Of a stretch of 64,000 nt of DNA, positions 11,595-42,861 are shown one piece after another (the stretch's first letter is position 1; each line of letters opens with the position of its first letter). Below the pieces are notes generated by a model, which made no database searches, was not told where the DNA came from, and saw only the letters and a list, made by a program, of their open reading frames with translations. The position numbers and the translations under genes are program-made. Source of the stretch: an uncultured Gemmatimonadales bacterium (GTDB taxonomy: Bacteria; Gemmatimonadota; Gemmatimonadetes; Gemmatimonadales; GWC2-71-9); contig CAVVKJ010000014.1 of assembly GCA_963748815.1 (NCBI GenBank), positions 128,001 through 192,000 of the forward strand. The letters run 5' to 3'.

Positions 11595-11606
11595 GCCTGG
11601 GCCAAC

Positions 11607-11683
11607 GGGCCCTTAGCTCAGGTGGTTAGAGCAGCGGACTCATAATCCGTAGGTCCCTGGTTCGAATCCAGGAGGGCCCACCA
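11607..11683 (+). tRNA. tRNA-Ile2 (anticodon CAT, lysidine type), CCA encoded
   Basis: GGGCCCT/AGGGCCC acceptor stem, anticodon loop CTCATAA, GGTTCGAATCC T-arm; closely resembles enterobacterial tRNA-Ile2. Confidence 0.9.
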
Positions 11684-11704
11684 CTAGGGCGGGGACTGAG
11701 AGTG

Positions 11705-11755
11705 AAGGACTGAGGACTGAGAGGGCGATCCCTCGACGTCCTCAGTCCTTTTCTC
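11705..11755 (+). terminator. Heptamer-built hairpin/terminator downstream of tRNA-Ile2
   Basis: AAGGACTGAGGAC (11705-11717) pairs with GTCCTCAGTCCTT (11738-11750); inner GAGGG/CCCTC stem; followed by T-rich tract. Confidence 0.6.
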
Positions 11756-11973
11756 TTGGCTCAGTCCTCAGTGCTCACCTCCCCTCCGGATGCCTTCACC
11801 ACACCCTCACATGCTTTTCACCCCCCGCCACCTAGCTTGGCTCGTGCAGGCAAGATTGTCAGCCTTTGGCTGGCGCCCCGAGGAGGTTCCGGTATGGCAG
11901 CAGCAGTGAGGCGGCATGCTGCCAAGGGTTCTCGTCGGCACTCAACCTCCTCTTGATCGAATTGGAGCACTTC

Positions 11974-12975
11974 ATGTTGGATGGAAACGTCCATAAGGCT
12001 GTGACTATTGCTGCGGCCGTGTTGTCAATTCTTGGGGTCGGCTGCTCCCAAGACACGGTGGTGGAACCGATCACCGGAGCGGCGACCGTCTCGGCGAGCG
12101 GCCAAGAGGGGCAAGTCGTCCTTGAACCTATGTGCAAACTCGGATGTATGGATGTAGACCCGGACCCGGAGTCCCCGGGTGTCTTTCTTGGTAGCGGGGT
12201 AACTGACGAAGTGTGCTTCACCTCAGCTCAGACTGACAACGATGCGGACGGACTCTCCACCTTCTGCGAGAACAATCTCGCCATGGCGTTCGCGCCGGAG
12301 CTTCGGTACGCCTACGGCGACGAAGTAGGGCGCGAGCCATATTGGGCTGCTCGCCCTGGTTCCGGTGGAACCGTGGTCATCGCATACCTCATCGGCTATT
12401 ATCGGGATGCGGGAAGTAGTGCCGGGGTCTGCAACCTGCCTCCGCCTCTATACGACCCTTCGTGCGACGGACACAATGGCGACTCCGAAACCATCCTTCT
12501 CGAAGTCTACTATGACTCGGATACACACCACTGGATTCTGAGTCAGGCTACTTACTCCCAACACGAGAGCTACGGGATCTATTCCACCTCCTCAGGATCA
12601 GGGTTTAATTACCCCTACATGCTTGACTATCCAGGCCACCCTGGTGCCTACCCTAGGAGCTATGTGTCTGAGGGGAAGCACGCCAACTATTCTTCCGAGA
12701 TCGAATGTGAGGCTGGGGGAGGCTTCGCTGCTGATACTTGTGCTGGAGTAGACACTTCAGAGCGGCTCATTGTGAGCGGGGCATATAACGTCGGCAGCCA
12801 TTCTGTACACCTGATTGACTGCGTCGGCAGCCGTGATTGGCACTATATCTACTACGGGAGTGGGCGTCTGGAGTGCTACTGGACGACTTCCAATTTCCGA
12901 GGATGGATTCCCACGTTCGTAGGTGGTGCGGAATCGAGCCCCTATCACAACCGCCTCATCTATGGGGGATTCTAG
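11974..12975 (+). CDS. Cys-rich lipoprotein of unknown function (islet cargo; possible distant Vps62/NPP1-like fold)
   Basis: GGAG SD; lipobox LGVG-C; 10 further Cys; GHNGDSE, YSQH and YVSEGKHANY motifs. Confidence 0.7.
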   Translation: MLDGNVHKAVTIAAAVLSILGVGCSQDTVVEPITGAATVSASGQEGQVVLEPMCKLGCMDVDPDPESPGVFLGSGVTDEVCFTSAQTDNDADGLSTFCENNLAMAFAPELRYAYGDEVGREPYWAARPGSGGTVVIAYLIGYYRDAGSSAGVCNLPPPLYDPSCDGHNGDSETILLEVYYDSDTHHWILSQATYSQHESYGIYSTSSGSGFNYPYMLDYPGHPGAYPRSYVSEGKHANYSSEIECEAGGGFAADTCAGVDTSERLIVSGAYNVGSHSVHLIDCVGSRDWHYIYYGSGRLECYWTTSNFRGWIPTFVGGAESSPYHNRLIYGGF

Positions 12976-13337
12976 TGTTGGCCCGAGCGTTCCTTGGCCT
13001 CGCTTTGTGCAGCGTCCTCGCTGCTGGAACGGCTGAGGCGCAATCGGGCTCGCTCACAGCCGCGAGCCCTGTCTGGTCCGTCTCTCGCCCCACAGCGCAG
13101 CACCGTGTTCCCGAAATGAGGATGTCGGGGACCAGCAAGAGCTACTGGTTTGAAGGGTTGATTGTCGGTGGGGTCGTATTCGGCGCGATGGGGGCAGCAA
13201 TCGCGAGCTCAAACTGTTCCAATTCTGAACTGGCTGATTCCGGGAGCTGCGTGGACAACACCCTACTTGGCGCCTTGGTTGGCGCTGCGATTGGTGCGGC
13301 TCCAGGGGCGTTGATCGGCGGGCTATTCCGGAAATAA
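12975..13337 (+). CDS. Small secreted/membrane glycine-zipper protein (islet cargo)
   Basis: GTG overlapping upstream TAG; signal ending AEA-Q; two GxxxG-rich helices flanking a Cys pair; stop 6 nt before the att repeat. Confidence 0.65.
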   Translation: MLARAFLGLALCSVLAAGTAEAQSGSLTAASPVWSVSRPTAQHRVPEMRMSGTSKSYWFEGLIVGGVVFGAMGAAIASSNCSNSELADSGSCVDNTLLGALVGAAIGAAPGALIGGLFRK

Positions 13338-13343
13338 GGCGAC

Positions 13344-13388
13344 CTCATAATCCGTAGGTCCCTGATTCGAATCCAGGAGGGCCCACCA
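13344..13388 (+). repeat. Duplicated 3' portion of tRNA-Ile2 (att-like direct repeat)
   Basis: CTCATAATCCGTAGGTCCCTGATTCGAATCCAGGAGGGCCCACCA; begins exactly at the anticodon loop; G>A change in the T-stem. Confidence 0.92.
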
Positions 13389-13410
13389 ACGGGATGAGGA
13401 CTGAGAGCAG

Positions 13411-13461
13411 AGGACTGAGGGCCGAGGGGGCCCCCCCCCGAGGCCATCAGTCCTTTATCTT
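13411..13461 (+). terminator. Second heptamer-built hairpin downstream of the duplicated tRNA 3' end
   Basis: AGGACTGA-G-GGCC...GGCC-A-TCAGTCCT followed by TTATCTT. Confidence 0.55.
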
Positions 13462-13470
13462 GCTTGGTCC

Positions 13471-13540
13471 TCAGTCCTCAGTCCTCAGTCCTCAGTCCTC
13501 AGTCCTCAGTCCTCAGTCCTCAGTCCTCAGTCCTCAGTCC
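13471..13540 (+). repeat. Perfect tandem heptamer (TCAGTCC) x10
   Basis: 70 nt counted directly. Confidence 0.97.
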
Positions 13541-13617
13541 GCCCCCCTTTCGGCCCCCCGCGGACCGCAGTATCCTGCAGATTGGTTCTTTCGCCATATC
13601 CATCGAGGAGTCCTCCC

Positions 13618-14451
13618 ATGACGAAGCGCACTATCAGGCTGCTGATGGCCCTGCTGACCATCTCGGCCATTCCCGCGACGCTGACCGCCCAGGAAACCGT
13701 CAAGGTGGACGGCGTCATCGTGGCGCGCTCCGGCGCCGAAATGATCGTCCATCCGCAGGGCGCCACCGGGAATACCACCGTCACCCTCTCGAACGACACC
13801 AAGGTCGAGGTGAAGGGCGGGCCGCTCGGGGTCAAGAAGTCCTCGATGGGCCCCGCCACCCTGATTCCCGGCCTCAAGGTCGAGGTGCAGGGCACCCCGG
13901 GCGCCCACGGGGGCGTCGCGGCGACCAAGGTGGAATTCAGCTCGGGCGACCTCAAGACCGCCAACGAGATCCAGGCCGGGGTGAACCCGACGGCCGAGCT
14001 GGCGGACTCCAATGCGGCGGGGCTGGCGGAAAACAAGGCGGAGACCGACTCGCTCAGCAAGCGGTTCGGGCAGTTGGGTGACTACGACGTCATCGCGCAG
14101 GACACGGTGTATTTCGGGGTGAACAGCTCGGTGATCTATCCGGCCGGACAGCAGACGCTCAAGGCGTTCGCGGCCAAGGCGCAGGGGATGGCGTCCTATA
14201 ACATCCTGGTGGCGGGGTATACCGACGCCTCGGGCAACGCGGAATACAACCAGCAGCTCAGCGAGCGGCGGGCCCAGGCCGTCATCGAGTACCTCGAGCA
14301 GAAGGCGGACATCCCGTTGTACCTCGTGCTCGCGCCGGCGGCGATGGGCTTTTCGCACCCGGCGGCTTCCAACGAGACCCAGGAGGGCGCGGCCAAGAAC
14401 CGTCGCGTGGTGGCGTCCATCGTGGTCAACCGCGGCATCACCGGACAATAG
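13618..14451 (+). CDS. OmpA-family peptidoglycan-binding protein with N-terminal beta-rich (DUF5666-like) domain
   Basis: GAGGAG SD; signal peptide; VYFGVNS, GYTDASG..YNQQLSERRAQAV, KNRRV. Confidence 0.88.
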   Translation: MTKRTIRLLMALLTISAIPATLTAQETVKVDGVIVARSGAEMIVHPQGATGNTTVTLSNDTKVEVKGGPLGVKKSSMGPATLIPGLKVEVQGTPGAHGGVAATKVEFSSGDLKTANEIQAGVNPTAELADSNAAGLAENKAETDSLSKRFGQLGDYDVIAQDTVYFGVNSSVIYPAGQQTLKAFAAKAQGMASYNILVAGYTDASGNAEYNQQLSERRAQAVIEYLEQKADIPLYLVLAPAAMGFSHPAASNETQEGAAKNRRVVASIVVNRGITGQ

Positions 14452-14463
14452 GAAGGCGAGACG

Positions 14464-14664
14464 ATGAGTAGACGGATCGTGGCGGCCTCGGCCGCGATGG
14501 CCGGCACCGTGCTGGCCATCGGCACCGTTTCCACGCCGCTGCCATCCGGCTGCACCACCAAGCCTGCCAGCGGGGTCGAGTACTACCAGTGCGGACCGAA
14601 CTGGTATCGCTCGGCGTTCCAGGGAAACACCCTCGTCTACGTGACCACCGAGGCGCCGAGCTGA
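14464..14664 (+). CDS. Small protein, DUF6515-like (LPxGC...YYQCG..WY)
   Basis: GGAAGG SD; LPSGCTT..GVEYYQCGPNWY..GNTLVYV pattern. Confidence 0.55.
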   Translation: MSRRIVAASAAMAGTVLAIGTVSTPLPSGCTTKPASGVEYYQCGPNWYRSAFQGNTLVYVTTEAPS

Positions 14665-14683
14665 CCGGCCAGGGCCGCCGCGC

Positions 14684-15004
14684 ATGACAGGAGAGCGCCT
14701 CTCGGGCAGGCGGCTCGCGCTGGCATTTGCCATCGCGGCGGTGTCCGATGCGCTCTCGTTCGCGCTGGCACTTGCGCCGCCGCTGCAATGGGCGGCCGAT
14801 GCCGGGACGGCGCTGCTGTTGTTCGCGATGCTGGGCTGGCAGTGGGTCCTGCTTCCGGGGCTCATCGTCGAGGCGATCCCTGGCCTGGCCGTCTTCCCTT
14901 TCTGGGTGCTGGTCGTGGGGGCGGTGGCGACGTGGGGACGGGTGCGGCCGCCGGCCAGCCGGACCCTCCCGCGCGAGGGCGGGGGCCAGACGCCCGAGCA
15001 GTAA
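14684..15004 (+). CDS. Small integral membrane protein
   Basis: Hydrophobic; LLPGLIVEAIPGLAVFPFW. Confidence 0.6.
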   Translation: MTGERLSGRRLALAFAIAAVSDALSFALALAPPLQWAADAGTALLLFAMLGWQWVLLPGLIVEAIPGLAVFPFWVLVVGAVATWGRVRPPASRTLPREGGGQTPEQ

Positions 15005-15150
15005 CAAGGCCCTGCGCCCGCTCCCCCGCCGATGCCGCGGGCGGCCGGCTCCATCCCATTGGCGCATTCCGATCAGGCGCGTAGCTTAGGTAGCATGCCA
15101 CGTTCGTGCGATCCGCGATTCTCTCCCTCCCTCGTATTCTGAGTTCCCTC

Positions 15151-16779
15151 ATGACCGATCGTCGAGACTTCCTGAAGGCCGCCGGCGTCACCGCCGCGGC
15201 CCTCGCCTCGGACGGCCTCCTCCGGGGCGCCTTCGCGTCCCCGTCGGCCGCCGCACCGTCGTCCACCGTCGGGCCGACCATGGACCCGGCCACGAGGGAT
15301 CTCCTCATGGAGGCGCTCAACGCCGCGAAACGGGCCGGTGCCAGCTACGCCGACGTCCGCATCGGGCGGCAGCGCAGCAGCTTCATCAGCACGCGGGAAG
15401 ACCACATTCAGTTTTCCGCGGAAAACGACACGCTGGGCGCCGGGGTGCGGGCGCTGGTGGACGGCACCTGGGGCTTTGCCGCGACCAAGACCCTCAACAA
15501 GGAGGGGGTGGCGGGTGCGGCCCGTGAGGCGGTGGCCATTGCCAAGGCGGATCGGATCGCCCGCGGCCAGCCGGTCGAGCTCTGGCCGTCGCCGTCGTAT
15601 CCCGATGTCAGCTGGCAAAGCGTCTATGAAATCGACCCCTTCACCATCTCCCTCGAGGAGAAGGTCGACCTGCTGCTTCGGGCCAACGCCGAGGCGATGA
15701 AGGTGCCCAACGTCAAGTTCGCCTCCAGCTCCATCTCGATGGTGAAGGATGAGCGGAACTACGCCAACACCGACGGGTCGGTCATTGCGCAGCAGTTCTT
15801 CCGAATCGCGCCGAACCTCACGGCCACGGCCGTGGCCCCGGACCGCTCCGATTTCCAGTCGCGGTCCTCGCAGGTTCCGCCGGCGAGCCGCGGATGGGAG
15901 TATGTGCTGTCCGCCGACCTGGTCGGCAATGCCCAGCAGTGGGGCGAGGAGGCGGCGCAGAAGCTGACCGCCAAGCCGGTGGAGGTCGGCCGGTACGACC
16001 TGATCCTGCATCCGACGCACCTCTGGCTCACCATCCACGAATCGATCGGGCACCCGACCGAGCTCGACCGCGCGATGGGCTACGAGGCCAACTACGCCGG
16101 CACCAGCTTCGTGGCGCCGCCCAAGTCGGTGCTCGGCAAGCTCAAGTATGGCCCGGAGTTCATGAACATCCAGGGCGACCGGTCGCAGGAGGGCGGACTG
16201 GCCACCATCGGCTGGGACGACGAGGGGGTCAAGCCGAACGACTTCCTGATCATCAAGCACGGTGTCATGAACGACTACCAGACCACCCGCGAGCAGGCCG
16301 GCTGGCTCAAGTGGTGGTACGACGAGCAGGGTATCCCGACCCGCTCGCACGGCTGTTCCTACGCCCAGAACTGGGGCAGCGTCCAGTTCCAGCGGATGCC
16401 CAATATTTCACTCCTGCCCGGGGCCGACGAGCGTTCCTGGGAGGACATCATCGCCGCCACCGACCGGGGCATCGCCATCATGGGCGACGGGTCGTTCTCC
16501 ATCGACCAGCAGCGCTACAACGCCCAGTTCGGCGGCCAGGTGTTCTACGAGGTCCGGGGCGGCAAGATTGTCGGCATGATGAAGGACGTCGCCTACCAGA
16601 TCCGCACGCCGGATTTCTGGAACTCGATGGACATGATCGGCGGGAAGTCGAGCTACATGCTGGGTGGCGCCCTGAACGACGGGAAGGGACAGCCCGGGCA
16701 GAGCAACGCAGTGAGCCATGGCTGTGTGCCCGCTCGCTTCCGGCAGGTGAACGTGATCAACACCGGGAGGACGGCATGA
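15151..16779 (+). CDS. tldD: TldD-family metalloprotease with Tat signal
   Basis: DRRDFLK twin-arginine signal; HESIGH zinc motif; WDDEG, QRMPN, C-terminal SHGC. Confidence 0.9.
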   Translation: MTDRRDFLKAAGVTAAALASDGLLRGAFASPSAAAPSSTVGPTMDPATRDLLMEALNAAKRAGASYADVRIGRQRSSFISTREDHIQFSAENDTLGAGVRALVDGTWGFAATKTLNKEGVAGAAREAVAIAKADRIARGQPVELWPSPSYPDVSWQSVYEIDPFTISLEEKVDLLLRANAEAMKVPNVKFASSSISMVKDERNYANTDGSVIAQQFFRIAPNLTATAVAPDRSDFQSRSSQVPPASRGWEYVLSADLVGNAQQWGEEAAQKLTAKPVEVGRYDLILHPTHLWLTIHESIGHPTELDRAMGYEANYAGTSFVAPPKSVLGKLKYGPEFMNIQGDRSQEGGLATIGWDDEGVKPNDFLIIKHGVMNDYQTTREQAGWLKWWYDEQGIPTRSHGCSYAQNWGSVQFQRMPNISLLPGADERSWEDIIAATDRGIAIMGDGSFSIDQQRYNAQFGGQVFYEVRGGKIVGMMKDVAYQIRTPDFWNSMDMIGGKSSYMLGGALNDGKGQPGQSNAVSHGCVPARFRQVNVINTGRTA

Positions 16780-18115
16780 GCGACGTCGTGATGTCTCGCG
16801 CGGACGCCCAGGCGCTCCTGGAGCGCGTCATGGGCTTTTCGAAGGCCGAGCGGGTCCAGGTGAGCCTCAACAGCTTCCGCACGGCGAACACCCGGTTTGC
16901 GGCCAACCAGCTCTCCACGGCAGGCACGGTGGACGACGCCGGCGTCTCGATCCAGAGCTGGTATGGCTCCAAGCACGCCGCGGCCCGCACCAACGACCTG
17001 TCGGACGCGTCGCTGCGCGCGGCGGTGGCGCTGTCGGAGGCGCAGGCCCGCCTCGCCCCCGAGGACCCGGAAGACATGCCGCTGCTCGGACCCCAGACCT
17101 ACGTCCCCGTCATGTCCTGGTTCGATTCCACTGCGGAGCTTACCGCCGGGGGCCGCGCGCAGGCGGCGCTGACGGCCCTCGAGGTGACCCGCGCGTCGCG
17201 CGACCTGCTCGCCTCGGGATTCCTCGAGACCAGGGCCAGCGCCACGGCCCTGGCGAACAGCGCCGGGCTCTTTGCGTATGATCGCACCACGTCGGCCAAC
17301 TACACGTTGACCGTGCGGACCACCGATGGCACCGGCTCCGGTTGGGCGGGAGCCGACAACCCCGACTGGTCGAAGCTGGATTTCCGTTCGGTGAGCACCA
17401 GGGCCATCGACAAGGCGCGCGCCTCCCGCGATCCGGTGGCCATCGAGCCGGGCCGCTACACCGCCATCCTGGAGCCGCAGGCCGTCGGCGACCTGACCCA
17501 GCTCATGCTCTTCGCCCTGTCGGCCCGTTCGGCGGACGAGGGCCGGAGTCCCTTCGCGAAGGAGGGCGGCGGCAACAAGATCGGCGAGAAGATTCTCGAC
17601 GAGCGCATCAGCATGATCTCCGATCCGCAGGATCCCATCCTGCTGGCCCGACCCTTCGACGGCGAGGGGCTGCCGCTCGGCCGCCAGGTGTGGGTCGAGA
17701 ACGGGGTGCTGAAGGCGCTGAACTACTCCCGCTACTGGGCCAAGAAGTCCGGGAATACGCCCACCGGCGGCCCGAGTTCCTGCCTGGTGCCCGGTGGCAC
17801 CACCTCGGTGGACGAGATGATCGCCCAGACGGAGCGTGGCGTGCTGTTGACCCGGCTCTGGTACCTGCGGCAGGTGGATCCGCGCACGATCCTGTACACT
17901 GGGCTCACGCGGGACGGCACCTTCCTGATCGAGAACGGGAAGATCAGCAAGGCGATCCGGAACTTCCGGTTCAACGAGTCGCCGCTGTTCATGCTCAACA
18001 AGGTGGACGCGATGGGGCCGGCCCAGCGACTGGCCGGCACCGAATCGGGAGGCGACGTCGCGATGCCCGCCCTCAAGGTGCGCGACTTCAACTTCACGAG
18101 CCTGTCGGAGGCCGT

Positions 18116-18119
<4 letters not shown>
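16776..18119 (+). CDS. TldE/PmbA-family protein
   Basis: TRFAAN, PGRYTAILEPQAV, PFDGEG, TGLTRDGTFLIENG, NFRFNES; ATGA overlap; no HExxxH. Confidence 0.88.
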
Positions 18120-19105
<986 letters not shown>

Positions 19106-19106
19106 G

Positions 19107-19985
19107 GTGCCGGCATCGAGCCTCCGAAGCTACGGCCCCCTCCTCGACGCGTTGGCCGGCCTCTCCTGGCCCGCGCGGCGTCCGGTCGGCGCCGGCGCCG
19201 CCGGGAGCCACCCCTCCCGGCTCCGCGGGATGGCTGCCGACTTCACCGAGTATCGCCCCTATCGCTTCGGCGATGATCCGCGGCGGCTGGACTGGAAGCT
19301 CCTGGCCCGGACCGATCGCGCCTACCTCCGTCTGACCGACGACAACGCCACGCGCTCCACCCTCATCCTGGTCGATGGGTCGGCCTCGCTCGCCTTCCCA
19401 TCGGACACCCTTTCCAAATGGACGCAGGCCTGCCGCCTCGCGGTGGGGCTCGCCTCCGTGGCGCGCAACGACGGCGATCCGGCAGGGTTGGTCGTCTCGC
19501 ACGAGCGCCGCCCTGTTCGCCTGGTCCCGCGGGCCCGGTCCGGCGCCATTCCGGAAATGGCGCGGGCGCTCCAGGCCCTCACGCCGGAGGGTTCCGCGCG
19601 CCTGGGCCCCGCGCTGGAACAGGTGCGCGCCGGCTGGCGGCTGGTGCTGATCTCCGATTTCCTGGGTGACGAGGTGGAGCTGCTTCCGCTGGTGCGGCAA
19701 CGCATCGTGGCCGGGGCGGAAGTCTTCGCCGTGCAGATCGTTGCGGACGAGGAGCTGCAGCCCCCGGAGGCCACCCGCCTCGCGGTGGATCCGGAACGCC
19801 CTGCGGTCCGGCATGTGCTGCAGGCCGGTGTGCACCGCGAGTACGCCGAACGCTTTGCCGCCTGGCGCGCCACGCTGCGGAGCGAGTGGCGGCACGCGGG
19901 CGCGGAATTCACCGAGGTGCGCGCCGAGGAGGATTCCGCCCGCGCCATCCGGCGGATCGTGGCCGGTGCGGAGGGCTCGCCGTGA
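19107..19985 (+). CDS. DUF58 (VWA-related) protein
   Basis: GSHPSRLRG, DFTEYRPYRFGDDPRRLDWK, ILVDGSAS, VLISDF. Confidence 0.88.
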   Translation: MPASSLRSYGPLLDALAGLSWPARRPVGAGAAGSHPSRLRGMAADFTEYRPYRFGDDPRRLDWKLLARTDRAYLRLTDDNATRSTLILVDGSASLAFPSDTLSKWTQACRLAVGLASVARNDGDPAGLVVSHERRPVRLVPRARSGAIPEMARALQALTPEGSARLGPALEQVRAGWRLVLISDFLGDEVELLPLVRQRIVAGAEVFAVQIVADEELQPPEATRLAVDPERPAVRHVLQAGVHREYAERFAAWRATLRSEWRHAGAEFTEVRAEEDSARAIRRIVAGAEGSP

Positions 19986-23253: not shown

Positions 23254-23861
23254 GCGAATTCGTCTTCGCCACCGCGCAGTACGAATCAGGCGACTGGGAC
23301 TCCGCGCCCCTCCTGCCGGCCAACATCATTGACTCGCTGGCCCGCTACACCTCGCTGGCGCTGGCGCCGCAGGGGGTGGTGGTGCCGCTCGCATCGAGTG
23401 AGCTCTTCCGCTATCCGCTGGTGTACCTCACCGGGCACCTGCCTCTCCGGTTCAGCGAGCAGGAGCGGCGCAACCTGCGCGCCTTCGTGGACCGGGGTGG
23501 CATGCTCTTCGTGGACGACCACAACCACGACATCGACGGGGTGTTTCACCAGACGGCGACGGAGGAGATCGGCCGGACCGTCGGCCCGCTGGTTGAATTG
23601 CCCAACGATCACCCCCTTTACTCGGCGTATTTCCAGTTTCCGGACGGACCGCCGGCCACCAGCCAGGAGCTGAACGGCTGGGGAGACAACCTGGTGCACC
23701 CCCACCTGCTGGCGGTCCAGCGCGGCGGCCGGATCGCGGTGCTCTACAGCAGCAAGGATTACAGCTCGGAGTGGGACTACCACGCCGAGACCAAGCGATT
23801 CTACTCGGTGGACAACACACGGTTCGCGGTCAACGTGGTGGTGTATGCGCTTACCCGCTGA
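23250..23861 (+). CDS. DUF4159 domain protein
   Basis: YESGDWD, YPLVYLTGH, GGMLFVDD, LPNDHPLY, KDYSSEW, FAVNVVVYALT. Confidence 0.85.
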   Translation: MSEFVFATAQYESGDWDSAPLLPANIIDSLARYTSLALAPQGVVVPLASSELFRYPLVYLTGHLPLRFSEQERRNLRAFVDRGGMLFVDDHNHDIDGVFHQTATEEIGRTVGPLVELPNDHPLYSAYFQFPDGPPATSQELNGWGDNLVHPHLLAVQRGGRIAVLYSSKDYSSEWDYHAETKRFYSVDNTRFAVNVVVYALTR

Positions 23862-25119
23862 TCGACGGAGCCTGGAGTGGGCGCTGCGGGCCGGCGCCCT
23901 GGTGGCGCTGGGGTGGTTGATGGTGCTCGCCTTGCAGCCGGCGCAGCCCGCCGGGCGGGCGGCGGTGGACGTCGCCGACTGGGAAACCGCCCGTGCCGAC
24001 TGGGCCTGGTATCCGCGGGCGGATTCGCTGGTGTTCGCGCTGGACGCCGCGCCTGTTCCCTTCGTCCGGGACTGGCTGGTGGCGCTCCGGCGGTCGGGCA
24101 CCACGGTGATGTGGGAAAATGGTGGGATCCCGGCGATCGCCCTGGAGGTCGAGCCGAGGCGAGACCCGGCCGGTGGCGTGCTGGTGCGGATCTCGGGTCC
24201 ACGGGGCGCAATGGTTCCGCTTGCCGACGAGGTCGGCGTGCTCGACACGCTTGCGGTTGGCGCCGAGGGAGGTGCGACGGTGCGGCTGCCCCCGGTGGTG
24301 GGGCCTGTGAGTGCATCGATTGGCGGGACGGCGGCGTCGAGAGGTGGCGACACCTCCACCGCCATCCGCCGACTTCTCCTGCTGGGGTCGGCGGGATGGG
24401 AGGCGCGGTTCATTGCGGCGGCGCTGGAGGAGCGGGGGTGGATCGTGGACGCGCGGTATGCCGTGGCACCCGGCATCGACGTGTTGCAGGGCAATCCGCT
24501 TCCGCTCGACACGGCCTCCCACGCGGCGGTGATCGTGCTCGACTCGAGCGCCGACCGATACGCCGGCCAGGTGGCGGGGTTCGTGCGGTCGGGGGGCGGC
24601 CTGGTGCTGGCGGGTGACGTCGGCGCGTCGTTCCGGCGGTTGGCGCCGGGGGTGGGGGGCGGGCCGGTGCGACATGCCGCCGCGATCACCTTCGAACAGG
24701 GCGACCCGCGCCGCGCGCTCTCCTATGTCGAGATCCAGTCCCTGGCTCCCGATGCGGTGACACTGGAGTCCCGGGATGGGGGCGCGGTCGTCGCGGCGCG
24801 GCGGGTGGGTGCCGGCCGAGTCGTCCAGGTGGGCTACCGCGAGAGCTGGCGCTGGCGAATGCAGGGCGGGGAAGGGTCGGTGGCGGCGCACCGATCCTGG
24901 TGGGCCGACCTGGTGGCCGGCGTGGCGTACGCGCCCGCCGCCCCGGACCAGCCGGGGGAGCCCGCACCGTTGGCGAGTCTTGTCGAGGCGATCGGGCCGG
25001 CCACCACGCTGCCCCCCGCACAGACCCCGCCCTTGCCCCTCTACCCGTGGCTGGTGGCGGTGCTGGGCCTCGGTCTGCTGCTTGAGTGGTCGTCGAGGAG
25101 GTTGCGGGGGGCGCGGTAG
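23845..25119 (+). CDS. Membrane protein of MoxR cluster (GATase-like segment, WRWR motif, C-terminal TM)
   Basis: GWEARF, GGGLVL, GAGRVVQVG..ESWRWRM, LLLEWSSRRLRG. Confidence 0.7.
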   Translation: MRLPADRRSLEWALRAGALVALGWLMVLALQPAQPAGRAAVDVADWETARADWAWYPRADSLVFALDAAPVPFVRDWLVALRRSGTTVMWENGGIPAIALEVEPRRDPAGGVLVRISGPRGAMVPLADEVGVLDTLAVGAEGGATVRLPPVVGPVSASIGGTAASRGGDTSTAIRRLLLLGSAGWEARFIAAALEERGWIVDARYAVAPGIDVLQGNPLPLDTASHAAVIVLDSSADRYAGQVAGFVRSGGGLVLAGDVGASFRRLAPGVGGGPVRHAAAITFEQGDPRRALSYVEIQSLAPDAVTLESRDGGAVVAARRVGAGRVVQVGYRESWRWRMQGGEGSVAAHRSWWADLVAGVAYAPAAPDQPGEPAPLASLVEAIGPATTLPPAQTPPLPLYPWLVAVLGLGLLLEWSSRRLRGAR

Positions 25120-25269
25120 GGCTGGCTGCCTTCCCGGAGTTGTCTGCGAGATGTAGACTGGATCGAGGGGGGTGGGTCTCTGCGCTCGGCTTCACGTTGG
25201 CCGTTGCGAGGTAGTCGTCGATTTGCGACAGCCCATCGCTCCCCCTCAACTCGGAGTAGACGCGCCGCC

Positions 25270-25830
25270 GTGGGCAATCTGACCTTCAGCATCAACGTCA
25301 CCCTCGACGGGTGCGTCGACCACCGGGTGGGTATCGCGGACGAGGAGACGCACGCTCTCTTCACCCGCCTCATGGACGAGAGCGGGGCGATGCTCTGGGG
25401 CCGCGTCACGTACGAGATGATGGAAAGCTACTGGCCGGCGGTCGCCCGTGGCGACGAGGAGGTGCCGCCAGCGCTGCGCGAGTGGGCGGTCAAACTCGAG
25501 GCGAAGCCGAAGTACGTCGTGTCGTCGACGCGAGCGAACTTCCCGTGGACCAACAGCCACCACATCGCCGGCGACCTGCGCACGGGCGTGCAGAAGCTGA
25601 AGGACGCGACCCCGGCCGGCATCCTCCTCGGCAGCGGCAGGCTCGCGACCGAGCTGGACCGGCTCGATCTGATCGACGAGTACAAGTTCCTTGTCCACCC
25701 CCGGATCGCCGGCCACGGCCCGACCCTGTACCAGGGCGGACTGCCCAGCACGCGACAACTCGCACTCGTCTCGGCGGCGCCGCTCCGCAGCGGCGCGGTC
25801 GCGCTGCACTACCGACGCGCGCGCGGCTAG
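25270..25830 (+). CDS. Dihydrofolate-reductase-like (RibD C-terminal) protein
   Basis: NVTLDG, LWGRVTYEMM..YWP, KYVVSST, GSGRLA, DLIDEY..HPRIAGHG. Confidence 0.88.
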   Translation: MGNLTFSINVTLDGCVDHRVGIADEETHALFTRLMDESGAMLWGRVTYEMMESYWPAVARGDEEVPPALREWAVKLEAKPKYVVSSTRANFPWTNSHHIAGDLRTGVQKLKDATPAGILLGSGRLATELDRLDLIDEYKFLVHPRIAGHGPTLYQGGLPSTRQLALVSAAPLRSGAVALHYRRARG

Positions 25831-25958
25831 CGACCGGCTGGAGCATGCGCTCGCGAGCCCCCTCCCAGCGGAGGCGCCAGGGGGGGCTGGTGGACGGGGA
25901 GTGCTCTCGCTGCGTGTCCTGTGTGTCGATTACCGTCATCCGCCTGGGAGAAGATCCC

Positions 25959-26354
25959 ATGGGTGCACAGTCCCCGAGGACCCATTTCGCAACGGCCACC
26001 GCCCTGGTACTGACCGGGCTGTGCGCCGGCACGGGCTGTGGTCTCTCGCCGGAGAATTGTACCGCCGACTTTCGCTATGGACTCACCGTGCAGGTGCGCG
26101 ATTCCGTCACAGGGGCTCCTGCCGGTCATGATGCCCTCGTGATCGCCCGGGACGGCGCGTATGCCGATACCCTTTCGTCCTTCCCCTTCAGCTCGGATTC
26201 GGTAACGTTTGTGGGGGCGGGGGAGCGGCCGGGCCGGTATGTGGTCACCGTCTCGAAGCCAGGTTATCAACTCTGGGTTCGCGATGGGGTGGAGGTCGGA
26301 GAGGATGGCTGCCACGTCCAGCAGGTCGCCATTACCGCGTTGCTCCAGCAGTAG
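25959..26354 (+). CDS. Small lipoprotein with carboxypeptidase-regulatory-like domain
   Basis: GGGAG SD; signal/lipobox; VRDSVTG, ERPGRYVVTVSKPGY, DGCHV. Confidence 0.7.
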   Translation: MGAQSPRTHFATATALVLTGLCAGTGCGLSPENCTADFRYGLTVQVRDSVTGAPAGHDALVIARDGAYADTLSSFPFSSDSVTFVGAGERPGRYVVTVSKPGYQLWVRDGVEVGEDGCHVQQVAITALLQQ

Positions 26355-26446
26355 CGCCGGACGGTTCAGGCTCGCTCGAGCTGTGCCGTCAGCCAGGGGC
26401 AATCAGGGGAGCCGCGCCACGCCGGCGCCCCATTGGGCGATGGGCC

Positions 26447-26535
26447 GCCTGTTCAGCACTTGCATCAGGCGAGTGCGCCCGCCAAGGGCGGCGAACGCCC
26501 TCGCCCCTGATGCGCGGTTCGTTCGTTCGTTCGGC
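26447..26535 (+). mobile_element. Degenerate attC-like site
   Basis: Imperfect hairpin GCATCAGGCGAG...CTCGCCCCTGATGC, then CGCGGTTC and R'-like GTTCGGC with expanded (GTTC)4; R'' degenerate. Confidence 0.35.
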
Positions 26536-26598
26536 CGCGCCACCGCCAAGACATCCGCCCTCCCATCCAACGAGGCTGTTGGCGCACTGGAGTCGACC

Positions 26599-27351
26599 AT
26601 GCCGATCGAGATTGGGCGCATTGAGGCGATCTTCCGCTATCCGGTGAAGTCCATGCGCGGCGAACGACGTGAGACCGCGACACTGGGCTGGCACGGCCTC
26701 GACGGGGACAGACGGCTGGCTTTTCGGCGGATCAACGACACCAGCGCCTTCCCCTGGCTGACGGCGGGCAAGCTTCCGAGTCTACTGCTCTATGCGCCTC
26801 ACCGTGACGGCGATGGTGCGGAAGCCGATCTGCCCACGCATGTCCGCACGCCGAGCGGCACCGAGATGGCCGTCTTCGGCGAAGCCCTGGCCACAGAGGT
26901 CGGCGGCCTCCATGGCGCACCTGTCCACATGATGCAGCTCAAGCATGGAATCTTTGATGAAGCCAGTGTCTCCGTAATCACCCCGGACACGGTTGACGAG
27001 ATCGCACGACTCTCCGGACGGCCTGCGGACATGCGACGGTTTCGCCCAAACATCGTGGTGCGCCCCGCGCGCTCGGTGCCATTCCAGGAGGATGCGTGGG
27101 TTGGCGGCGTCCTCTCCTTCGGAGAGGGCGGCGAAGGTCCCGCCATCTGTGTCACAACACGAGATGTGCGCTGCTCGATGGTCAACCTCGATCCCGACTC
27201 GGCACAGTCTGCACCGGAAGTCCTCCGGACAATCGTTCGGGTGACTCAGAACAACGCGGGCGTCTACGGCACCGTCACTCGCATCGGCGGACTGGCAGTC
27301 GGACAGCCTGTCCTCCTCCATGCTGGCGCCCGGAAAGGGCGCACGACCTGA
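26599..27351 (+). CDS. MOSC domain protein
   Basis: RYPVKSMRGE, GDRR, RRFRPNI, RCSMVNLDP, GVYGTV. Confidence 0.9.
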   Translation: MPIEIGRIEAIFRYPVKSMRGERRETATLGWHGLDGDRRLAFRRINDTSAFPWLTAGKLPSLLLYAPHRDGDGAEADLPTHVRTPSGTEMAVFGEALATEVGGLHGAPVHMMQLKHGIFDEASVSVITPDTVDEIARLSGRPADMRRFRPNIVVRPARSVPFQEDAWVGGVLSFGEGGEGPAICVTTRDVRCSMVNLDPDSAQSAPEVLRTIVRVTQNNAGVYGTVTRIGGLAVGQPVLLHAGARKGRTT

Positions 27352-27406
27352 CCCGCGCGTCCAGCTGCCGCGAGTGCCGTCGCCGCTGATGCCCCATTCG
27401 CTAGAC
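27346..27406 (+). mobile_element. Degenerate attC-like site (61 bp)
   Basis: ACCTGAC-N5-CGTCCAGC...GCTGATG-N8-GCTAGAC; L'' has one extra base relative to L'; MOSC stop codon lies within R''. Confidence 0.45.
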
Positions 27407-27434
27407 CGACATTCAGAAATGTGAGCGAGAAGAG

Positions 27435-28073
27435 ATGAGCAAGGTCTTTGTGAACATCGGACTGAGTCTCGACGGGTACATGGCGCCGGAAGGGATGGCC
27501 ATCGAGCATTGGGATCGACCCGAGTACAAGAACTGGGGCGCCAAGTGGGGCGCGCTGATGGGCTGGGTCCTCAAACAGCAATATTTCCGCGAGAACCTGA
27601 AGTTCGGCCCGGGAGGAGAGACCGGCCCGGTCAACGATATGCTCCGTCACACGATGGAGCGCAGCGGCGCGAGCATCATGGGCAAGCGAATGTTTGACGC
27701 AGGCGAGCGCAGCTGGCCCGAGGAAGCGCCGTTTCACACTCCGGTGTACGTGCTCACCCACGAGAAGCGCGAGCCATGGGTCCGGCCGGGCGGGACGACG
27801 TTCTATTTCGTCAACGATGGGACAGCGAGTGCCCTGGAGACCGCCCGGAAGTCGGCCGGCGGGCGGGACGTCCGCATCTCGGGCGGAGCGGATGTGATTC
27901 AGCAGTACTTGAACATGGGTGTCGTCGATGAACTGGAAATTGCCCTGGCGCCGGTGCTATTTGGCAGTGGAAGACGCCTCTTCGAGAACCTGCACGAGGC
28001 CGTGCCGCAGTTCCGGATCGACCAGGTGCTCAATACGCCGGATGCGACACACCTGCGCTATGTGCGTGCGTAG
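27435..28073 (+). CDS. Dihydrofolate-reductase-like (RibD C-terminal) protein
   Basis: SLDGY, IMGKRMF, PFHTPVYVLTH, GGADVIQQYL, PVLFGSGRRLF. Confidence 0.9.
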   Translation: MSKVFVNIGLSLDGYMAPEGMAIEHWDRPEYKNWGAKWGALMGWVLKQQYFRENLKFGPGGETGPVNDMLRHTMERSGASIMGKRMFDAGERSWPEEAPFHTPVYVLTHEKREPWVRPGGTTFYFVNDGTASALETARKSAGGRDVRISGGADVIQQYLNMGVVDELEIALAPVLFGSGRRLFENLHEAVPQFRIDQVLNTPDATHLRYVRA

Positions 28074-28151
28074 AGGCGGCTGAACACCACGTGGGAGGTG
28101 AGGTGTTTCCCCCCTCCACCTCCTCCAGCAGCATGGAAGGAGCATTCCACC

Positions 28152-28814
28152 ATGCAGGACACCTGGTCCCGTGTCGATCGCTACGCGGGGGATCTTCTCT
28201 TCCCGGCCGACACGATCCTGGAGGCCGCGCTCGAGGCGTCTACTGCCGCGGGGTTGCCTGCGATTGCCGTCTCCCCCGCCCAGGGCCAGTTCCTCGCGCT
28301 GCTGGTGCAGGCGCTCGGCGCCCGCCGCGTGCTGGAGCTGGGGACGCTCGGTGGATACAGCACGATCTGGATGGGACGCGCCCTTCCGCCTGGCGGCCAT
28401 CTCCTCACCCTCGAACTCGACCCCGCGCATGCGGCCGTCGCCAAGGCCAATCTGGCGCGGGCGGGGCTGGCCGATGTCGTCACCGTGCGGGTCGGGCCGG
28501 CCGCCGAGACGCTCCGCCAGCTCGCCAGGGTTGGCGAAGCGCCCTTTGATCTTGTCTTCATCGATGCCGACAAGACGGGGTATCCTGACTACCTCGAACT
28601 GATTCTTCCCCTTGTCCAAAGGGGGAGCCTCATCATCGCCGACAATGTGGTGCGGGGTGGCGCCATCACGGATGCAAGCAGTACGGACCCGAATGTCCAG
28701 GCCGTCCGCCGATATCTCGAAATGGTGGCGGCGCACCCCCGCCTCAGCGCCACGGTGCTCCAGACGGTGGGGAGCAAGGGGTACGACGGACTGGCGCTTG
28801 CCGTCGTGCTCTAG
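28152..28814 (+). CDS. O-methyltransferase (COMT/caffeoyl-CoA type)
   Basis: AAGGAG SD; LELGTLGGYS, FIDADK, IADNVVRGG, KGYDG. Confidence 0.92.
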   Translation: MQDTWSRVDRYAGDLLFPADTILEAALEASTAAGLPAIAVSPAQGQFLALLVQALGARRVLELGTLGGYSTIWMGRALPPGGHLLTLELDPAHAAVAKANLARAGLADVVTVRVGPAAETLRQLARVGEAPFDLVFIDADKTGYPDYLELILPLVQRGSLIIADNVVRGGAITDASSTDPNVQAVRRYLEMVAAHPRLSATVLQTVGSKGYDGLALAVVL

Positions 28815-28853
28815 GTCGCGCGTCGGCCATATCGGTTGGAGTGACGGCGGGCG

Positions 28854-29615
28854 TCAATCGGGCGGCCGGAGGACGAGGTTTCGGAAATCGCCGACCGAAG
28901 TCCCGTGCACAAAGTACCCGACGCCGCCGGAACGATGCGAGGAGGGATTGATCACCGAGAGCACCGGGGTCTCGTTCCGGTCCAGGTAGACCACGACCGC
29001 CGCCCCGCGCACCCGCACCCGAACGTGGATCCACGCGGTGGGGTCGAGCGAAGGCGGGACCGCCTGCTCGAAGCCCCCGGGCGCCTCGGTTCGCAAGCGG
29101 TCCCACGGATACGCGGGGGACGAGACGAACTGCACGGCGTGGGCTCGGCGCGCGGAGTCCGCCGCCCGGAAATTGAAGGGGCGGAGGTAGACCGCATCGA
29201 AGCTGGTGTCGCTGGTAATGTGAAACGCGATGCCCACGAAGCTGTGCCCCGGGATGTCCCGGCCGCGGACGTCGAATTCGATGTCACCGTCGGTGAACGC
29301 CAGCGCCGGAGACCAGACCAGCCCGACGGTATCCGGCTCCCCGACGATCGCCAGGTACTCGCCTCCACCATCGCGCTGGATGTCGATCGTCCGGCTGAAC
29401 AGCCGCCACCCCCCAGGGGGCGCTTCGGCGCCGGCGAGGCTGACTGGCAGGGTGCCTTGCGCGCTCCCACTGGCGGGCAGGAGGACCGAAGCGAACGCGC
29501 CAAGGATGAACTGAGCCACGACCAGCGGTGGGAGCGCCTGGACTCGCGTGGTGGACTCCTGCGTGCGGAGACGGACGACGGCGGCCGTTGGTATCCGGAC
29601 GTCGACCGACGGCAA
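28854..29615 (-). CDS. Secreted DUF1080-like (concanavalin-fold) protein; start uncertain
   Basis: FTDGDIEFDVRG, FVGIAFH, YLRPFNF, WIHVRVRV, GGVG..GDFRNL. Confidence 0.65.
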   Translation of the reverse strand: MPSVDVRIPTAAVVRLRTQESTTRVQALPPLVVAQFILGAFASVLLPASGSAQGTLPVSLAGAEAPPGGWRLFSRTIDIQRDGGGEYLAIVGEPDTVGLVWSPALAFTDGDIEFDVRGRDIPGHSFVGIAFHITSDTSFDAVYLRPFNFRAADSARRAHAVQFVSSPAYPWDRLRTEAPGGFEQAVPPSLDPTAWIHVRVRVRGAAVVVYLDRNETPVLSVINPSSHRSGGVGYFVHGTSVGDFRNLVLRPPD

Positions 29616-29698
29616 GAGGTTTCGTCTGCCGCCGAGGGCCGGGAGACGAAATCGCGGGCTGACGCATCTACCTCGAAATTCTCTCCCGGAGCCGATTC

Positions 29699-30859
29699 GT
29701 GAACTGCGTACCCTCCCGAGCCAGTGCCGCCCTGGTGCTCACCCTCCTGGCAGGGTGTGGCGGCGATCGCCCTGATGCCGGCGGAACCACGATCGTCGAC
29801 TCCGCCGGGGTCGAACTGGCCGTCGCGGCCGCCGTCGACCAGCCCCTGGGGTGGACGCTGACCGAACGCTTCCGTCTCGGTGGGGCCGACGACGGACCGG
29901 GCAGCTTCACGTCGGCGAGCATGTGGAACACTGGTACTGACCGGGAAGGCAGGATCTACGTGCTCGATGGTCAGCAGTTCCGGGTGGAGGTGTTCGCGCC
30001 TTCCGGGGAGCACCTTCGCTTTCTCGGTCGGAAGGGGGGCGGGCCGGGGGAAATTGAGTTTCCCATCTCGCTCTTCGTCAGCCCGGCCGGGGTGGCCCAG
30101 GTCTTCGACGCCGGAAAGCTGGCGCTCGTGCGCTGGGACGCCAACGGTGAGCTGTTGCCGCCAATCTCCCTGCAGGGAAGCGCCCCCCGGTTTCCCATCG
30201 CCTATGGGGACACGCTGATTCTCGGCCTGAACGAGGGGGCTGACACCCTGAGGACCACCCGGCTGGTGACCATCGTGGGCGGCGACACCACGACCATCAC
30301 GTCGTTCACGACGCCGACCGGCGCGATGGCCGAGTTCTCCTGCGTGAGTTTCGTCCAACCGCCGGTGTTCTCACCCACCCTGCAGTGGACCACGAATGGG
30401 CGTGCGGTGGCCACGACCCGCCAGGCGTCCTATCAGGTGGACGTGTACGACGGCGCCAGTCTGGTCCGGAGCATCCGGCGGTCAATTCCCTCGAGGCCGA
30501 CGTCGGTAGACGACGTGAAGCGCCTCTATCCGAACGGGATGGAAGTGCATTTCGGCGGTGGGAGAGGATGCACGATTCCCGCGCACGAGATCATGGAAAA
30601 GCAGGGAGTCGCCCCCATGGTGCCACAAATCCGCTCGCTGCGATTCGACCCCCAGGACCGATTGTGGGTGGAGCGGTACACCTTCGCCGATGAGCCCGCG
30701 CTGGTCGACCTGTTTGACGCGAGTGGCCACTACCTCGGCTCGCTGTCCGGCAAGGGCCCCCCGGTCGGGTTCATCGGCACCGACGTGATCCTGTTCGCCC
30801 AGGAAGACGAGGATACCGGTGTGCGGCAGGTCGTGGCGTACCAGGTCACCGGCGGGTAA
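29699..30859 (+). CDS. 6-bladed beta-propeller lipoprotein
   Basis: Lipobox LAG-C; DSAGVE; GRIYVLD, GRKGGGPGE, DRLWVER, DLFDASGHYLG. Confidence 0.8.
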   Translation: MNCVPSRASAALVLTLLAGCGGDRPDAGGTTIVDSAGVELAVAAAVDQPLGWTLTERFRLGGADDGPGSFTSASMWNTGTDREGRIYVLDGQQFRVEVFAPSGEHLRFLGRKGGGPGEIEFPISLFVSPAGVAQVFDAGKLALVRWDANGELLPPISLQGSAPRFPIAYGDTLILGLNEGADTLRTTRLVTIVGGDTTTITSFTTPTGAMAEFSCVSFVQPPVFSPTLQWTTNGRAVATTRQASYQVDVYDGASLVRSIRRSIPSRPTSVDDVKRLYPNGMEVHFGGGRGCTIPAHEIMEKQGVAPMVPQIRSLRFDPQDRLWVERYTFADEPALVDLFDASGHYLGSLSGKGPPVGFIGTDVILFAQEDEDTGVRQVVAYQVTGG

Positions 30860-30892
30860 CACCGGCGGCTCCCGGCTTCCCAGGTGTGGGAA

Positions 30893-30941
30893 ACACGACA
30901 CCCCGCGCAAGCCGGCTGGCTGGGCGGGGTGCTTGTCGTGT
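30893..30941. terminator. Hairpin downstream (minus strand) of the duplicated tRNA-Val 3' end
   Basis: ACACGACA-CCCCGC...GCGGGG-TGCT-TGTCGTGT inverted repeats. Confidence 0.6.
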
Positions 30942-30944
30942 GCA

Positions 30945-30963
30945 ATGGGCGATGAGGGCTCGA
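30945..30963 (-). repeat. Duplicated 3' end of tRNA-Val(CAC) (att-like repeat)
   Basis: ATGGGCGATGAGGGCTCGA versus ATGGGCGATGAGGGGCTCGA at 31731-31750 (one G deleted). Confidence 0.8.
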
Positions 30964-31074
30964 CGAAAAGCGCCCTGGGCATCGATAGGCGGGCGTACCG
31001 AGTGTCTATCGCATGGACGCCGTGTCGGGGCCGGAGGGTCCGGGTCCGCCCGGAGGATTCGCGGTGTGCTTGAG

Positions 31075-31655
31075 GGCCCGAGTTCCCCGTGCAACTGACC
31101 GTTCCAAACGGGTTCCCTGCCGATGCTGGTGCCGCTCTTGGTCGAAGGCAACGACGCACCGTCCGTCCGGGGAGCGCGTGACCGTCGCGGCGGCGGACCA
31201 GGCCGTCGTGGTGGCGCTCAGGAAGGTGACCGTCACCTCGTCGGAGGCGCGGAAAGCCCAGCTCCTCGATATCACTGGTGTAGCTGTTGCTGTCCGCGTA
31301 GAAGTTGTCTTCGGCGTAGGCGAGCCTGTCCAGGTCGTCGTGCGCTCGGTACATCCGGTGCTTCGCCCGGCCCTCGGACCCCATCGCCAAGGGATGGCTG
31401 CGTAGGCCGTTGATCCCAGCGCGACAAGAATCGGCGACCAGGCCACGGCCAGGGACATAGGTGCTTCCGGCGCACGAACAGGACGACCGTGGCAGCGAGC
31501 CAGAGGATCACCACTCCGAGCGCAACGAGGGCCAGGGTGCCACCGGATCGGCCCGTGAAGAATATCACGCCACCGAACCCGAGGAACACAAACCCCCATA
31601 TGAGGGTGAGGAAGACTGCGACAGTGCCCAGCACCGCAATGACGGCTCGTTGCAT
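31075..31655 (-). pseudogene. Frameshifted membrane protein with pilin-like C-terminal domain; 3' end approximate
   Basis: GAGGAG SD and ATG 31655; TM segments, then DDLDRLAYAEDNFYADSNSY..LGF / RASDEVTVTFLSATTTAWSAAAT..RCVV / GTVSC spread over three frames (about 4 shifts). Confidence 0.6.
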
Positions 31656-31731
31656 GAGTTCTCCTCGGGGGTGACACGACGAACGCCCCGCTCAGTCCTC
31701 GAGGGCCAAGCGGGGCAAGTAGTTGCACTGA

Positions 31732-31805
31732 TGGGCGATGAGGGGCTCGAACCCCCGACCTCGCGCATGTGAGGCGCGCGCTCTAACCAGCTGAGCTAAT
31801 CGCCC
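31732..31805 (-). tRNA. tRNA-Val (anticodon CAC), CCA not encoded
   Basis: Reverse complement GGGCGATTAGCTCAGCTGGTTAGAGCGCGCGCCTCACATGCGCGAGGTCGGGGGTTCGAGCCCCTCATCGCCCA, followed by TCA. Confidence 0.95.
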
Positions 31806-42428: not shown

Positions 42429-42861
42429 TCTGGCAGACGACCTGCACGCCGCGCTGACGGCGGCTCGCAAGTCCAAGAACAAGGACCGTACCCAGCTTCT
42501 GGGGACGGTCCTTGCCGCTCTCAAGAACCGGGAGCTGGAGCAGCAACGCGCCCCGACCGACGAGGACGCGATCGAGGTGCTGCAGAAGGGCGTCAAGATG
42601 CGACGCGAATCGGTGGAGCAGTACGTGAAGGGCGGTCGCGAGGACCTGGCCGCGCAGGAACGCGCCGAAATCAAGATCATCGAGGAGTTCCTTCCGCCAG
42701 CCGCCGACCCCGAGGAGATCCGCCTGGCGGTGCGCGCCGCCATCGCCGATGGAGCAGCCGATATCGGCAAGGTGATGGGGCGAGTCGTCCCGCAGTTCAA
42801 GGGGCGCGCCGACGGCAAGCTCATCCAACAGATCGTCCGAACGGAGCTCTCGCTGGGATGA
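42421..42861 (+). CDS. GatB/YqeY domain protein
   Basis: [33 protein letters not shown]. Confidence 0.92.

Follow-up and report, generated by a model that had tools for sequence, protein, structure and literature searches.

The DNA analysed here (the window) is a stretch of 64,000 nucleotides (nt), G000:C14:128001-192000, from the genome of an uncultured Gemmatimonadales bacterium (G000; 3.16 Mb, 86% complete). Transfer RNA genes were called with ARAGORN, which found an intact tRNA(CAT) at 11607..11683 on the + strand and an intact tRNA-Val(CAC) at 31732..31805 on the - strand; the two genes converge across a spacer of 20,048 nt (11684..31731). The tRNA(CAT) is probably tRNA-Ile2, by elimination among the three CAT tRNAs of the genome and by known identity features. 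Behind each tRNA lies a short unit that ends in a displaced copy of the tRNA 3' end (the tail), and the cargo of each unit was confirmed to be co-oriented with its own tRNA. An original prediction, made from the sequence alone, had suggested that both units may be cassettes mobilised in trans, each with a host-style terminator and surface-protein cargo, or else eroded remnants of larger islands. In agreement with that prediction, Pfam detected no family of integrases, transposases or phage proteins among the called genes of the window, and contig C14 is without a PF00589 match; the genome has seven such matches in total.

The first unit starts directly behind tRNA-Ile2 with a terminator-like hairpin (hairpin 1; 11684..11775, +) made of GGACTGAG/CTCAGTCC heptamer repeats, as judged by repeat count, identity and folding tests. 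Two cargo genes follow: one encoding a 333-amino-acid (aa) low-GC protein of no Pfam family, with a lipobox-like N-terminus as seen by eye (11974..12975, +), and one encoding a membrane protein of about 120 aa with a glycine-zipper-like C-terminus (12975..13337, +; start codon inferred), for which the glycine-zipper match in Pfam (E 1.6e-4) lies below the family cut-off. Atlas leads for the 333-aa protein were weak (Vps62-related 0.91, NPP1-like 0.88, recognition under threshold). A genome search found the tail (13344..13388, +), which begins exactly at the anticodon loop and shares 44 of its 45 nt with the tRNA-Ile2 3' end (E 4.8e-17 in that search). Tail and template are 1,705 nt apart; the tail lies within a 118-nt repeat of 81% identity and the same spacing. 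The second cargo gene stops only 6 nt before the tail; therefore there is no room for an arm of the kind found in the islands described below. Behind the tail stand hairpin 2 (13389..13540, +), a run of heptamer repeats resembling the single hairpin behind tRNA-Ile2 in unit-free relatives, and an OmpA-family gene (13618..14451, +).

Both Ile2 hairpins contain the predicted GGACTGA/TCAGTCC heptamers, but these form a genome-wide family (80 clusters, 35 of them with at least two copies) and are not specific to the tRNA. The two hairpins are 75% alike, but hairpin 1 is 83% like the tmRNA hairpin of the same genome; it is also 83% like the single Ile2 hairpin of relative G016. Short-read contigs of runs X1 and X2 span the Ile2 junctions with 0 differences; the two runs, both of one study, could include the source sample. 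A joint at 11726-13511 (X1, X4) was not taken as an empty Ile2 site, its 21-nt side lying within heptamer repeats.

The second unit is read from the - strand. The hairpin next to tRNA-Val (31685..31731, -) is followed by a single cargo gene (31006..31655, -), the tail (30946..30963, -) and a distal hairpin with a CCCCGC/GCGGGG stem (30875..30945, -; identity and folding), which in relative G001 stands behind the last tail. Beyond the distal hairpin lies a gene for a 386-aa beta-propeller-like protein (29699..30859, +), which forms the flank on which the Val units counted below are found. The cargo gene encodes a membrane protein of about 216 aa, without Pfam family and with matches to hypothetical clusters only, which by its general resemblance may be pilin-like. 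It is intact in G001 and G002 and spread over three frames in the window, from which contigs of run X3 differ at three indels; sequence errors and recent decay are both possible. Depth over the Val unit is 0 at 31080, 31131 and 31251 in X1, X2 and X4, which was not used as evidence by itself.

The Val tail, supported by alignment and a shuffle test, starts in the T loop, 786 nt from the gene, and matches the last 19 nt of tRNA-Val over 18 nt with a 1-nt deletion. Two copies of its exact 14-nt core are present in the window, whereas 100 shuffles gave a mean of 0.00; in G001 the tail is intact (19/19). Both 3'-end duplications are thus real, and both recur in G001. The predicted distances of 52 and 57 nt between the repeat ends and the motif ACACGAC were confirmed, with motif starts at 30893 and 31674. 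What the window retains is probably the stump of a longer tail, of 45 nt, that was interrupted in the T loop, because G005 and G008 carry longer tails split there by a 20-43-nt insert. Displaced Val, Ile-GAT, Pro and Ile2 tails are repeatedly broken at the same T-loop position by a GC-rich insert of 20-45 nt (window 30964-30980; L012, L023, L083, L106, L028, L116), and these inserts have no Rfam match.

The two Val hairpins had likewise been called homologous. They are 64% alike over 70 nt, a marginal value when random 70-mers of the window reach 63% at the 95th percentile and 67% at most, and their homology was rejected as not above background. The tRNA-proximal Val hairpin folded no better than shuffled sequences (z -1.16, 22/200 as good, 72 nt tested); the other three hairpins fold at z -3.2 to -5.6. 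In a scan of hairpins and split tails at nine loci, covering both units, only tRNA reached the Rfam gathering score.

In the 12 genomes of the genus with both tRNAs on one piece, the spacer measures 216, 216, 1,495, 2,298, 3,046, 4,250, 5,221, 6,465, 7,563, 14,411, 20,048 and 20,531 nt, and it holds both shared and private blocks. The whole inter-tRNA interval is an additive island, because the spacer between the facing tRNAs varies from 0.2 to 20.5 kb in these genomes.

Fifteen Val loci were examined. Tails are present in G000, G001 (two), G002, G004, G005 and G008; seven of the 15 loci have no tail, and G014 has a second hairpin without one. The duplication in G012 (L010:10573-10672) was not counted, being an internal 26-nt duplication that breaks tRNA-Val, possibly an assembly slip. 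G001 carries a 0.8-kb unit as in the window and then a 10.7-kb unit, which has no integrase among its nine called genes; the window site equals the G001 site minus the 10.7-kb unit, tail to tail. The empty site is seen in just one X2 contig, which has a 62-nt loose end and runs from the distal hairpin directly into intact tRNA-Val. With 0, 1 and 2 of them on one Val flank, the units are discrete, and the prediction of variable and stackable units is supported. Of the two further signs of mobility it had named, the empty site was found, but no circle junction was seen among the 15 of 30 joints listed, all from contigs, which cannot show absence.

The Val cargo gene is 94-95% identical across G000, G001, G002 and G014, which are four species, against 85-92% for the flanking gene. 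It is also 86-90% like a copy in G376, from another family, which is reversed, lies amid attC-like motifs by a transposase-like open reading frame (ORF), and has no tail while keeping the hairpin 3' arm (L067, L081); from its surroundings, this copy may represent a gene passing between two capture systems. No integrase-bearing island with the Val cargo was found in the 301 genomes of the order.

A complete island of 7.5 kb occupies the same tRNA-Val in G004. It has a 45-nt tail and encodes a tyrosine integrase, whose gene converges on the tRNA, as well as AAA_25 and YqaJ; among the eight ORFs scanned, Pfam detected neither relaxase nor conjugation genes. The original prediction had regarded a full integrase-bearing island at the locus as evidence against itself, and this applies in part: the G004 island has the same tRNA-proximal end as the window unit, but its cargo differs. 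Of 201 family genomes, 43 contain relatives of the G004 integrase (E <=1e-25), and a tRNA gene adjoins 18 of 20 integrase-relative loci among the matches listed. Eight islands (1 Val, 2 Ile-GAT, 2 Arg, 2 Pro and 1 Gly) open with a hairpin, behind which stands a GGTGTCC repeat pair that recurs about 120 nt ahead of the tail; seven of the eight hairpins share the CCCCGC type seen in the window.

A proximal-end model, built only from the eight tRNA ends that abut an integrase gene, matched the hairpin behind tRNA-Val in the window with a genome-wide E of 4.7e-5, at model positions 6-48 only, ending before the GGTGTCC pair, which the window unit lacks. A distal-arm model had no match in G000. The same hairpin stands behind Ile, Arg, Pro and Gly tRNAs at integrase islands, and a host-cognate origin was rejected: instead of a host-style terminator, as had been proposed, the Val hairpin is the end of a tyrosine-integrase island family. 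The position and repeat form of the GGTGTCC pairs suggest that they are arm-type integrase sites; arm binding is described as required for assembly of the recombination complex (PMC2951348).

The relatives show successive stages at tRNA-Val, with the whole island in G004, both ends in G005, the proximal end alone in G003 and G016, and the hairpin alone in G000, G001, G002, G014 and G007. The decay of a single integrase family can be followed clearly at this one tRNA. In the G005 unit (L012:1263-1973; 711 nt), the two island ends enclose one 64-aa gene, and no integrase is present; by its structure, this unit is the strongest individual candidate for a non-autonomous element in the genus. A search of viral contigs for G004-type arms gave 0 matches. 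Elsewhere in G000 (L028/L029, G000:C17:59732-81338), 21.5 kb separate tRNA-Ile(GAT) from a 20-nt tail, which is followed by the same integrase-family hairpin, on a contig without a PF00589 match.

The Ile2 locus was recovered in 13 of 16 relatives, and the tail was present only in G001; in five relatives ompA lies directly behind a single hairpin, which is the unit-free state. G000 and G001 are 99.9% identical over the Ile2 unit and 85-88% in the upstream genes. The near-identical tract (11499..13886), with 4 substitutions and one 14-nt repeat indel, extends into ompA. Because it overruns the tail by about 500 nt, the comparison points to homologous recombination in the latest Ile2 transfer, not att-exact insertion. 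The remnant appears to have been caught just after transfer between species, and the tract shows the route. ComEC and DprA genes are present in G000.

Relatives of the 333-aa cargo protein occur in 27 of 301 genomes; they are patchy and not linked to tRNAs, with no tRNA within flanks of up to 1.5 kb on each side at any of 13 non-self loci, and the same two-gene module is found between ordinary genes, for example between a HIT gene and rpsU in G008. The tRNA itself has been hit repeatedly in the family: of 221 genomes searched, 129 had matches, 14 of these with at least two. One of the 14, G138, was dropped since it has two whole genes. Ile2 tails in other genera of the family likewise start at the anticodon loop. 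Integrase genes lie inside the Ile2 islands of G116 and the unpublished G223, and none was found in those of G183, G104, G189, G423, G017 and the sister genus g17 (six queries). The tail boundary suggests that the window's Ile2 unit, too, originated in an integrase island.

Taken together, these findings are probably best explained if both units are decayed remnants of tyrosine-integrase islands, similar to cis-mobilizable elements (CIMEs), within the additive island, and are now spread mainly by homologous recombination. Of the readings offered originally, the fallback of eroded islands is the one that fits best. An island would have inserted itself at the tRNA and, by an established mechanism that is also seen in the sister islands, completed the gene with the 3' part that it carried, so that the host 3' part came to lie at the island's far end. 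Integrated islands are known to bring a replacement terminator; here this would be the terminator-like hairpin directly behind the tRNA, as observed for Val and supposed for Ile2. The integrase gene and the arm-like repeats, both absent from the units, would then have been lost by deletion, after which the hairpin and the tail would enclose just one or two cargo genes. Such a remnant would move between species mainly by homologous recombination, with the tRNA and the neighbouring genes as anchors, as the tract indicates for Ile2 and as may be supposed for Val. Gain and loss of whole units at the tails, a pattern visible on the Val flank, could be due to the integrase of an incoming island or to the short repeats themselves.

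Several observations weigh against this explanation. Nothing can be read from the left edge of the Ile2 tract, because the same stretch is 99% conserved in the unit-free G006, and competence genes demonstrate capacity, not use. The Ile2 hairpins are of the host-repeat type and tied to no integrase family. The label of arm site is based on position and repeat form only. Exact tail-to-tail differences of 0, 1 and 2 units are what site-specific recombination would give, 19 nt are short for RecA, and the Val cargo comes first behind the tRNA on four different distal backgrounds. No integrase-bearing island with the cargo of either unit was found, so that descent by deletion is a supposition.

Some of these points would be accounted for if the units were non-autonomous cassettes, excised and inserted by an integrase encoded elsewhere and forming an integron-like array at tRNAs, which we consider possible but unlikely. 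The clean tail junctions on the Val flank, the high conservation of the Val cargo relative to its flank in four species and the 711-nt unit of G005 would all be expected. Candidate enzymes exist: a relative of the G004 integrase (76%) lies at another tRNA in G001, and G000 has an integrase-bearing island at elongator tRNA-Met, whose anticodon-loop heptamer is common to Met and Ile2. However, the G000 protein closest to the G004 integrase is only 33-34% identical to it, the missing circle junction gives no help within the limits of contigs, and mobilisation in trans, as originally proposed, is not supported by these two units, neither of which keeps the arm repeats, nor by an Ile2 transfer that ignores the tail boundary.

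Arrays in genus g17 match the architecture first proposed closely and, on sequence, make a better case for the cassette idea than the window units do. Behind tRNA-Ile2 there are six junctions in 6.9 kb in G433, five in 7.7 kb in G180 and one each in G032, G129 and G221 (L118 and L129 in G433:C224, L130 in G180:C428, L119, L133 and L134), with units of 1-3 kb. In each junction there is a distal arm, which measures about 120 nt and contains a direct-repeat pair, then a tail reaching from the anticodon stem onwards, and in most cases a hairpin that resembles the tRNA-proximal one. The distal arms are 74-94% alike (median 85, 12 arms), and each precedes a different small cargo: DUF1330, YdhR, a methyltransferase, an arsenic operon or a peptidase. 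The description of the cargo as surface proteins, and of the system as one of surface variation, does not extend to related units, which carry arsenic, methyltransferase, kinase and peptidase genes; in the window the label goes back to N-termini that are hydrophobic or lipobox-like by eye and to the one sub-threshold glycine-zipper match.

No integrase gene was found in the g17 arrays. The search for a cognate integrase gave none on genome contigs, where the arms occur in five stretches, all of g17, and none by protein search of the five genomes; the arms had 0 matches in viral contigs, and in metagenome contigs they were found on two short contigs without an integrase. Shuffling of unit order was considered and dropped: the arsenic unit comes first in G032 and G221 and is distal in G433, which plain accretion explains. 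Both the order of units and the lack of a cognate integrase thus count against cassette movement. We nevertheless propose, tentatively, that Gemmatimonadales may harbour integrase-less mini-elements of 0.7-3 kb that keep both island ends and are stacked at tRNAs by an integrase encoded elsewhere, a tRNA-anchored and integron-like form of gene capture of which the window units would be retired, arm-less members. Outside the window, the Ile2 arrays of G433 and G180 and the G005 unit are the best examples. Should movement in trans be demonstrated for the arm-intact g17 arrays, these would offer a tRNA-anchored counterpart of integrons that is open to testing.

Decay from integrase islands, the explanation preferred here, also has to be set against a formation of the Ile2 unit with no integrase island at all. 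Foreign DNA would have been captured by recombination at the tRNA 3' half and the repeat-rich terminator, duplicating both the tail and the host terminator. The host heptamer family to which both Ile2 hairpins belong, the lack of an arm remnant in the unit and the occurrence of the same two-gene module between ordinary genes agree with such a capture. It seems improbable: the duplication and the Ile2 tails of other genera share an exact start at the anticodon loop, a point that homology-driven capture does not favour, and the Val hairpin would be left unexplained. That the duplications are assembly artefacts or chance matches, as the window's frameshifts of the kind typical of long-read errors and the short Val tail might suggest, is extremely improbable, since both units recur in G001, short-read contigs already refute it for Ile2, and the genome search and the shuffles show that neither tail is expected by chance.

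Integrase-less remnants at tRNA 3' ends are already described and abundant. The CIMEs reported from streptococci are decayed elements of 1.2-13 kb that have cargo but no integrase and are flanked by att sites at the 3' ends of genes, tRNA-Lys among them; they occur alone or in tandem and are very common, with 215 at one tRNA in 303 genomes as cited there (PMC5704250, PMC7563491). The window units resemble them in having neither integrase nor transfer genes (Pfam on the cargo and the called genes of the window; PF00589 search of the genome). According to the definition in those reports, however, CIMEs keep attL and attR and derive from integrative and conjugative elements or integrative and mobilizable elements, whereas the window units keep the cores and not the arm repeats: the GGTGTCC pair is absent at both ends of the Val unit, and the Ile2 unit leaves 6 nt between cargo and tail. 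The G005 unit does retain both att ends, with one proximal repeat left. As to descent from such elements, the sister island of G004 has the integrase, AAA_25 and YqaJ, with no relaxase among the eight ORFs scanned, and an intact island with the window cargo was not found. The tandem Val units of G001 show accretion only.

The additive flexible genomic islands of Alteromonas are likewise described as having a conserved tRNA as cassette target and a variable length at a fixed place (PMC4119200), and a fixed tRNA anchor with variable length is what we find; here, two converging tRNAs share one spacer, the units have 0.8-1.7 kb and the empty state measures 216 nt. The restored tRNA and the displaced 3' fragment in the same orientation, by which Islander is reported to recognise islands in tRNA genes and their tandem arrays, are both present in the window (PMC4383910). 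The same report gives an integrase and at least 2 kb as requirements, so that the window units (1,705 and 786 nt, no integrase) would be rejected; this class is discarded by design by integrase-dependent island finders (PMC4383910). In Prochlorococcus, tycheposon islands are described in which successive integrations push older elements away from the tRNA and leave partial tRNAs and degenerate remnants, as here, but tycheposons encode an integrase and often replication genes, and the window units encode neither (10.1101/2020.12.28.424599). Arrays of small integrase-less units with repeated junctions are a likeness to integrons that holds for g17, with at most two units in genus g1. The unit ends here are tRNA cores, and the IntI-like gene of G000 (78% to that of G008) is on contig C8 and the window on C14, so that it does not adjoin the units. 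Literature searches, outside which most subscription papers lay, found no description of a tRNA-anchored integron analogue or of such units in this phylum.

Other features linked to tRNAs or cassettes were noted in the genome. The elongator tRNA-Met island (L027, G000:C10:636709-643265) has 6.3 kb, with an integrase, an EcoRI-like nuclease and an adenine methyltransferase, and its 45-nt tail is followed by two more short tails about 60 nt apart. A third integrase-less unit, of 1.66 kb, lies at tRNA-Leu(TAA) (L026, G000:C10:9562-11304) with a 49-nt tail, one beta-propeller gene and no hairpin copy; its cargo had no match in 16 relatives at E 1e-10. A 41-nt copy of the tRNA-Pro 5' half (G000:C10:421540-421580) is located about 1.75 kb upstream of tRNA-Pro(TGG).

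Within the window, small genes of the integron-cassette type (RibD-like, MOSC, O-methyltransferase) occupy 25270-28814. An attC-like stretch at 27354-27409 has two copies in G008 (L023), where an IntI-like gene is 12 kb from tRNA-Val. A third ARAGORN call, a tRNA-Pro at 52827-52902, lies inside a gene for a SpoIIE/GAF protein and is probably false. At 42858-47078 a single called ORF fuses MutS2-like and DNA primase domains; relatives have the two in separate genes, and the fusion could be due to a sequence error.

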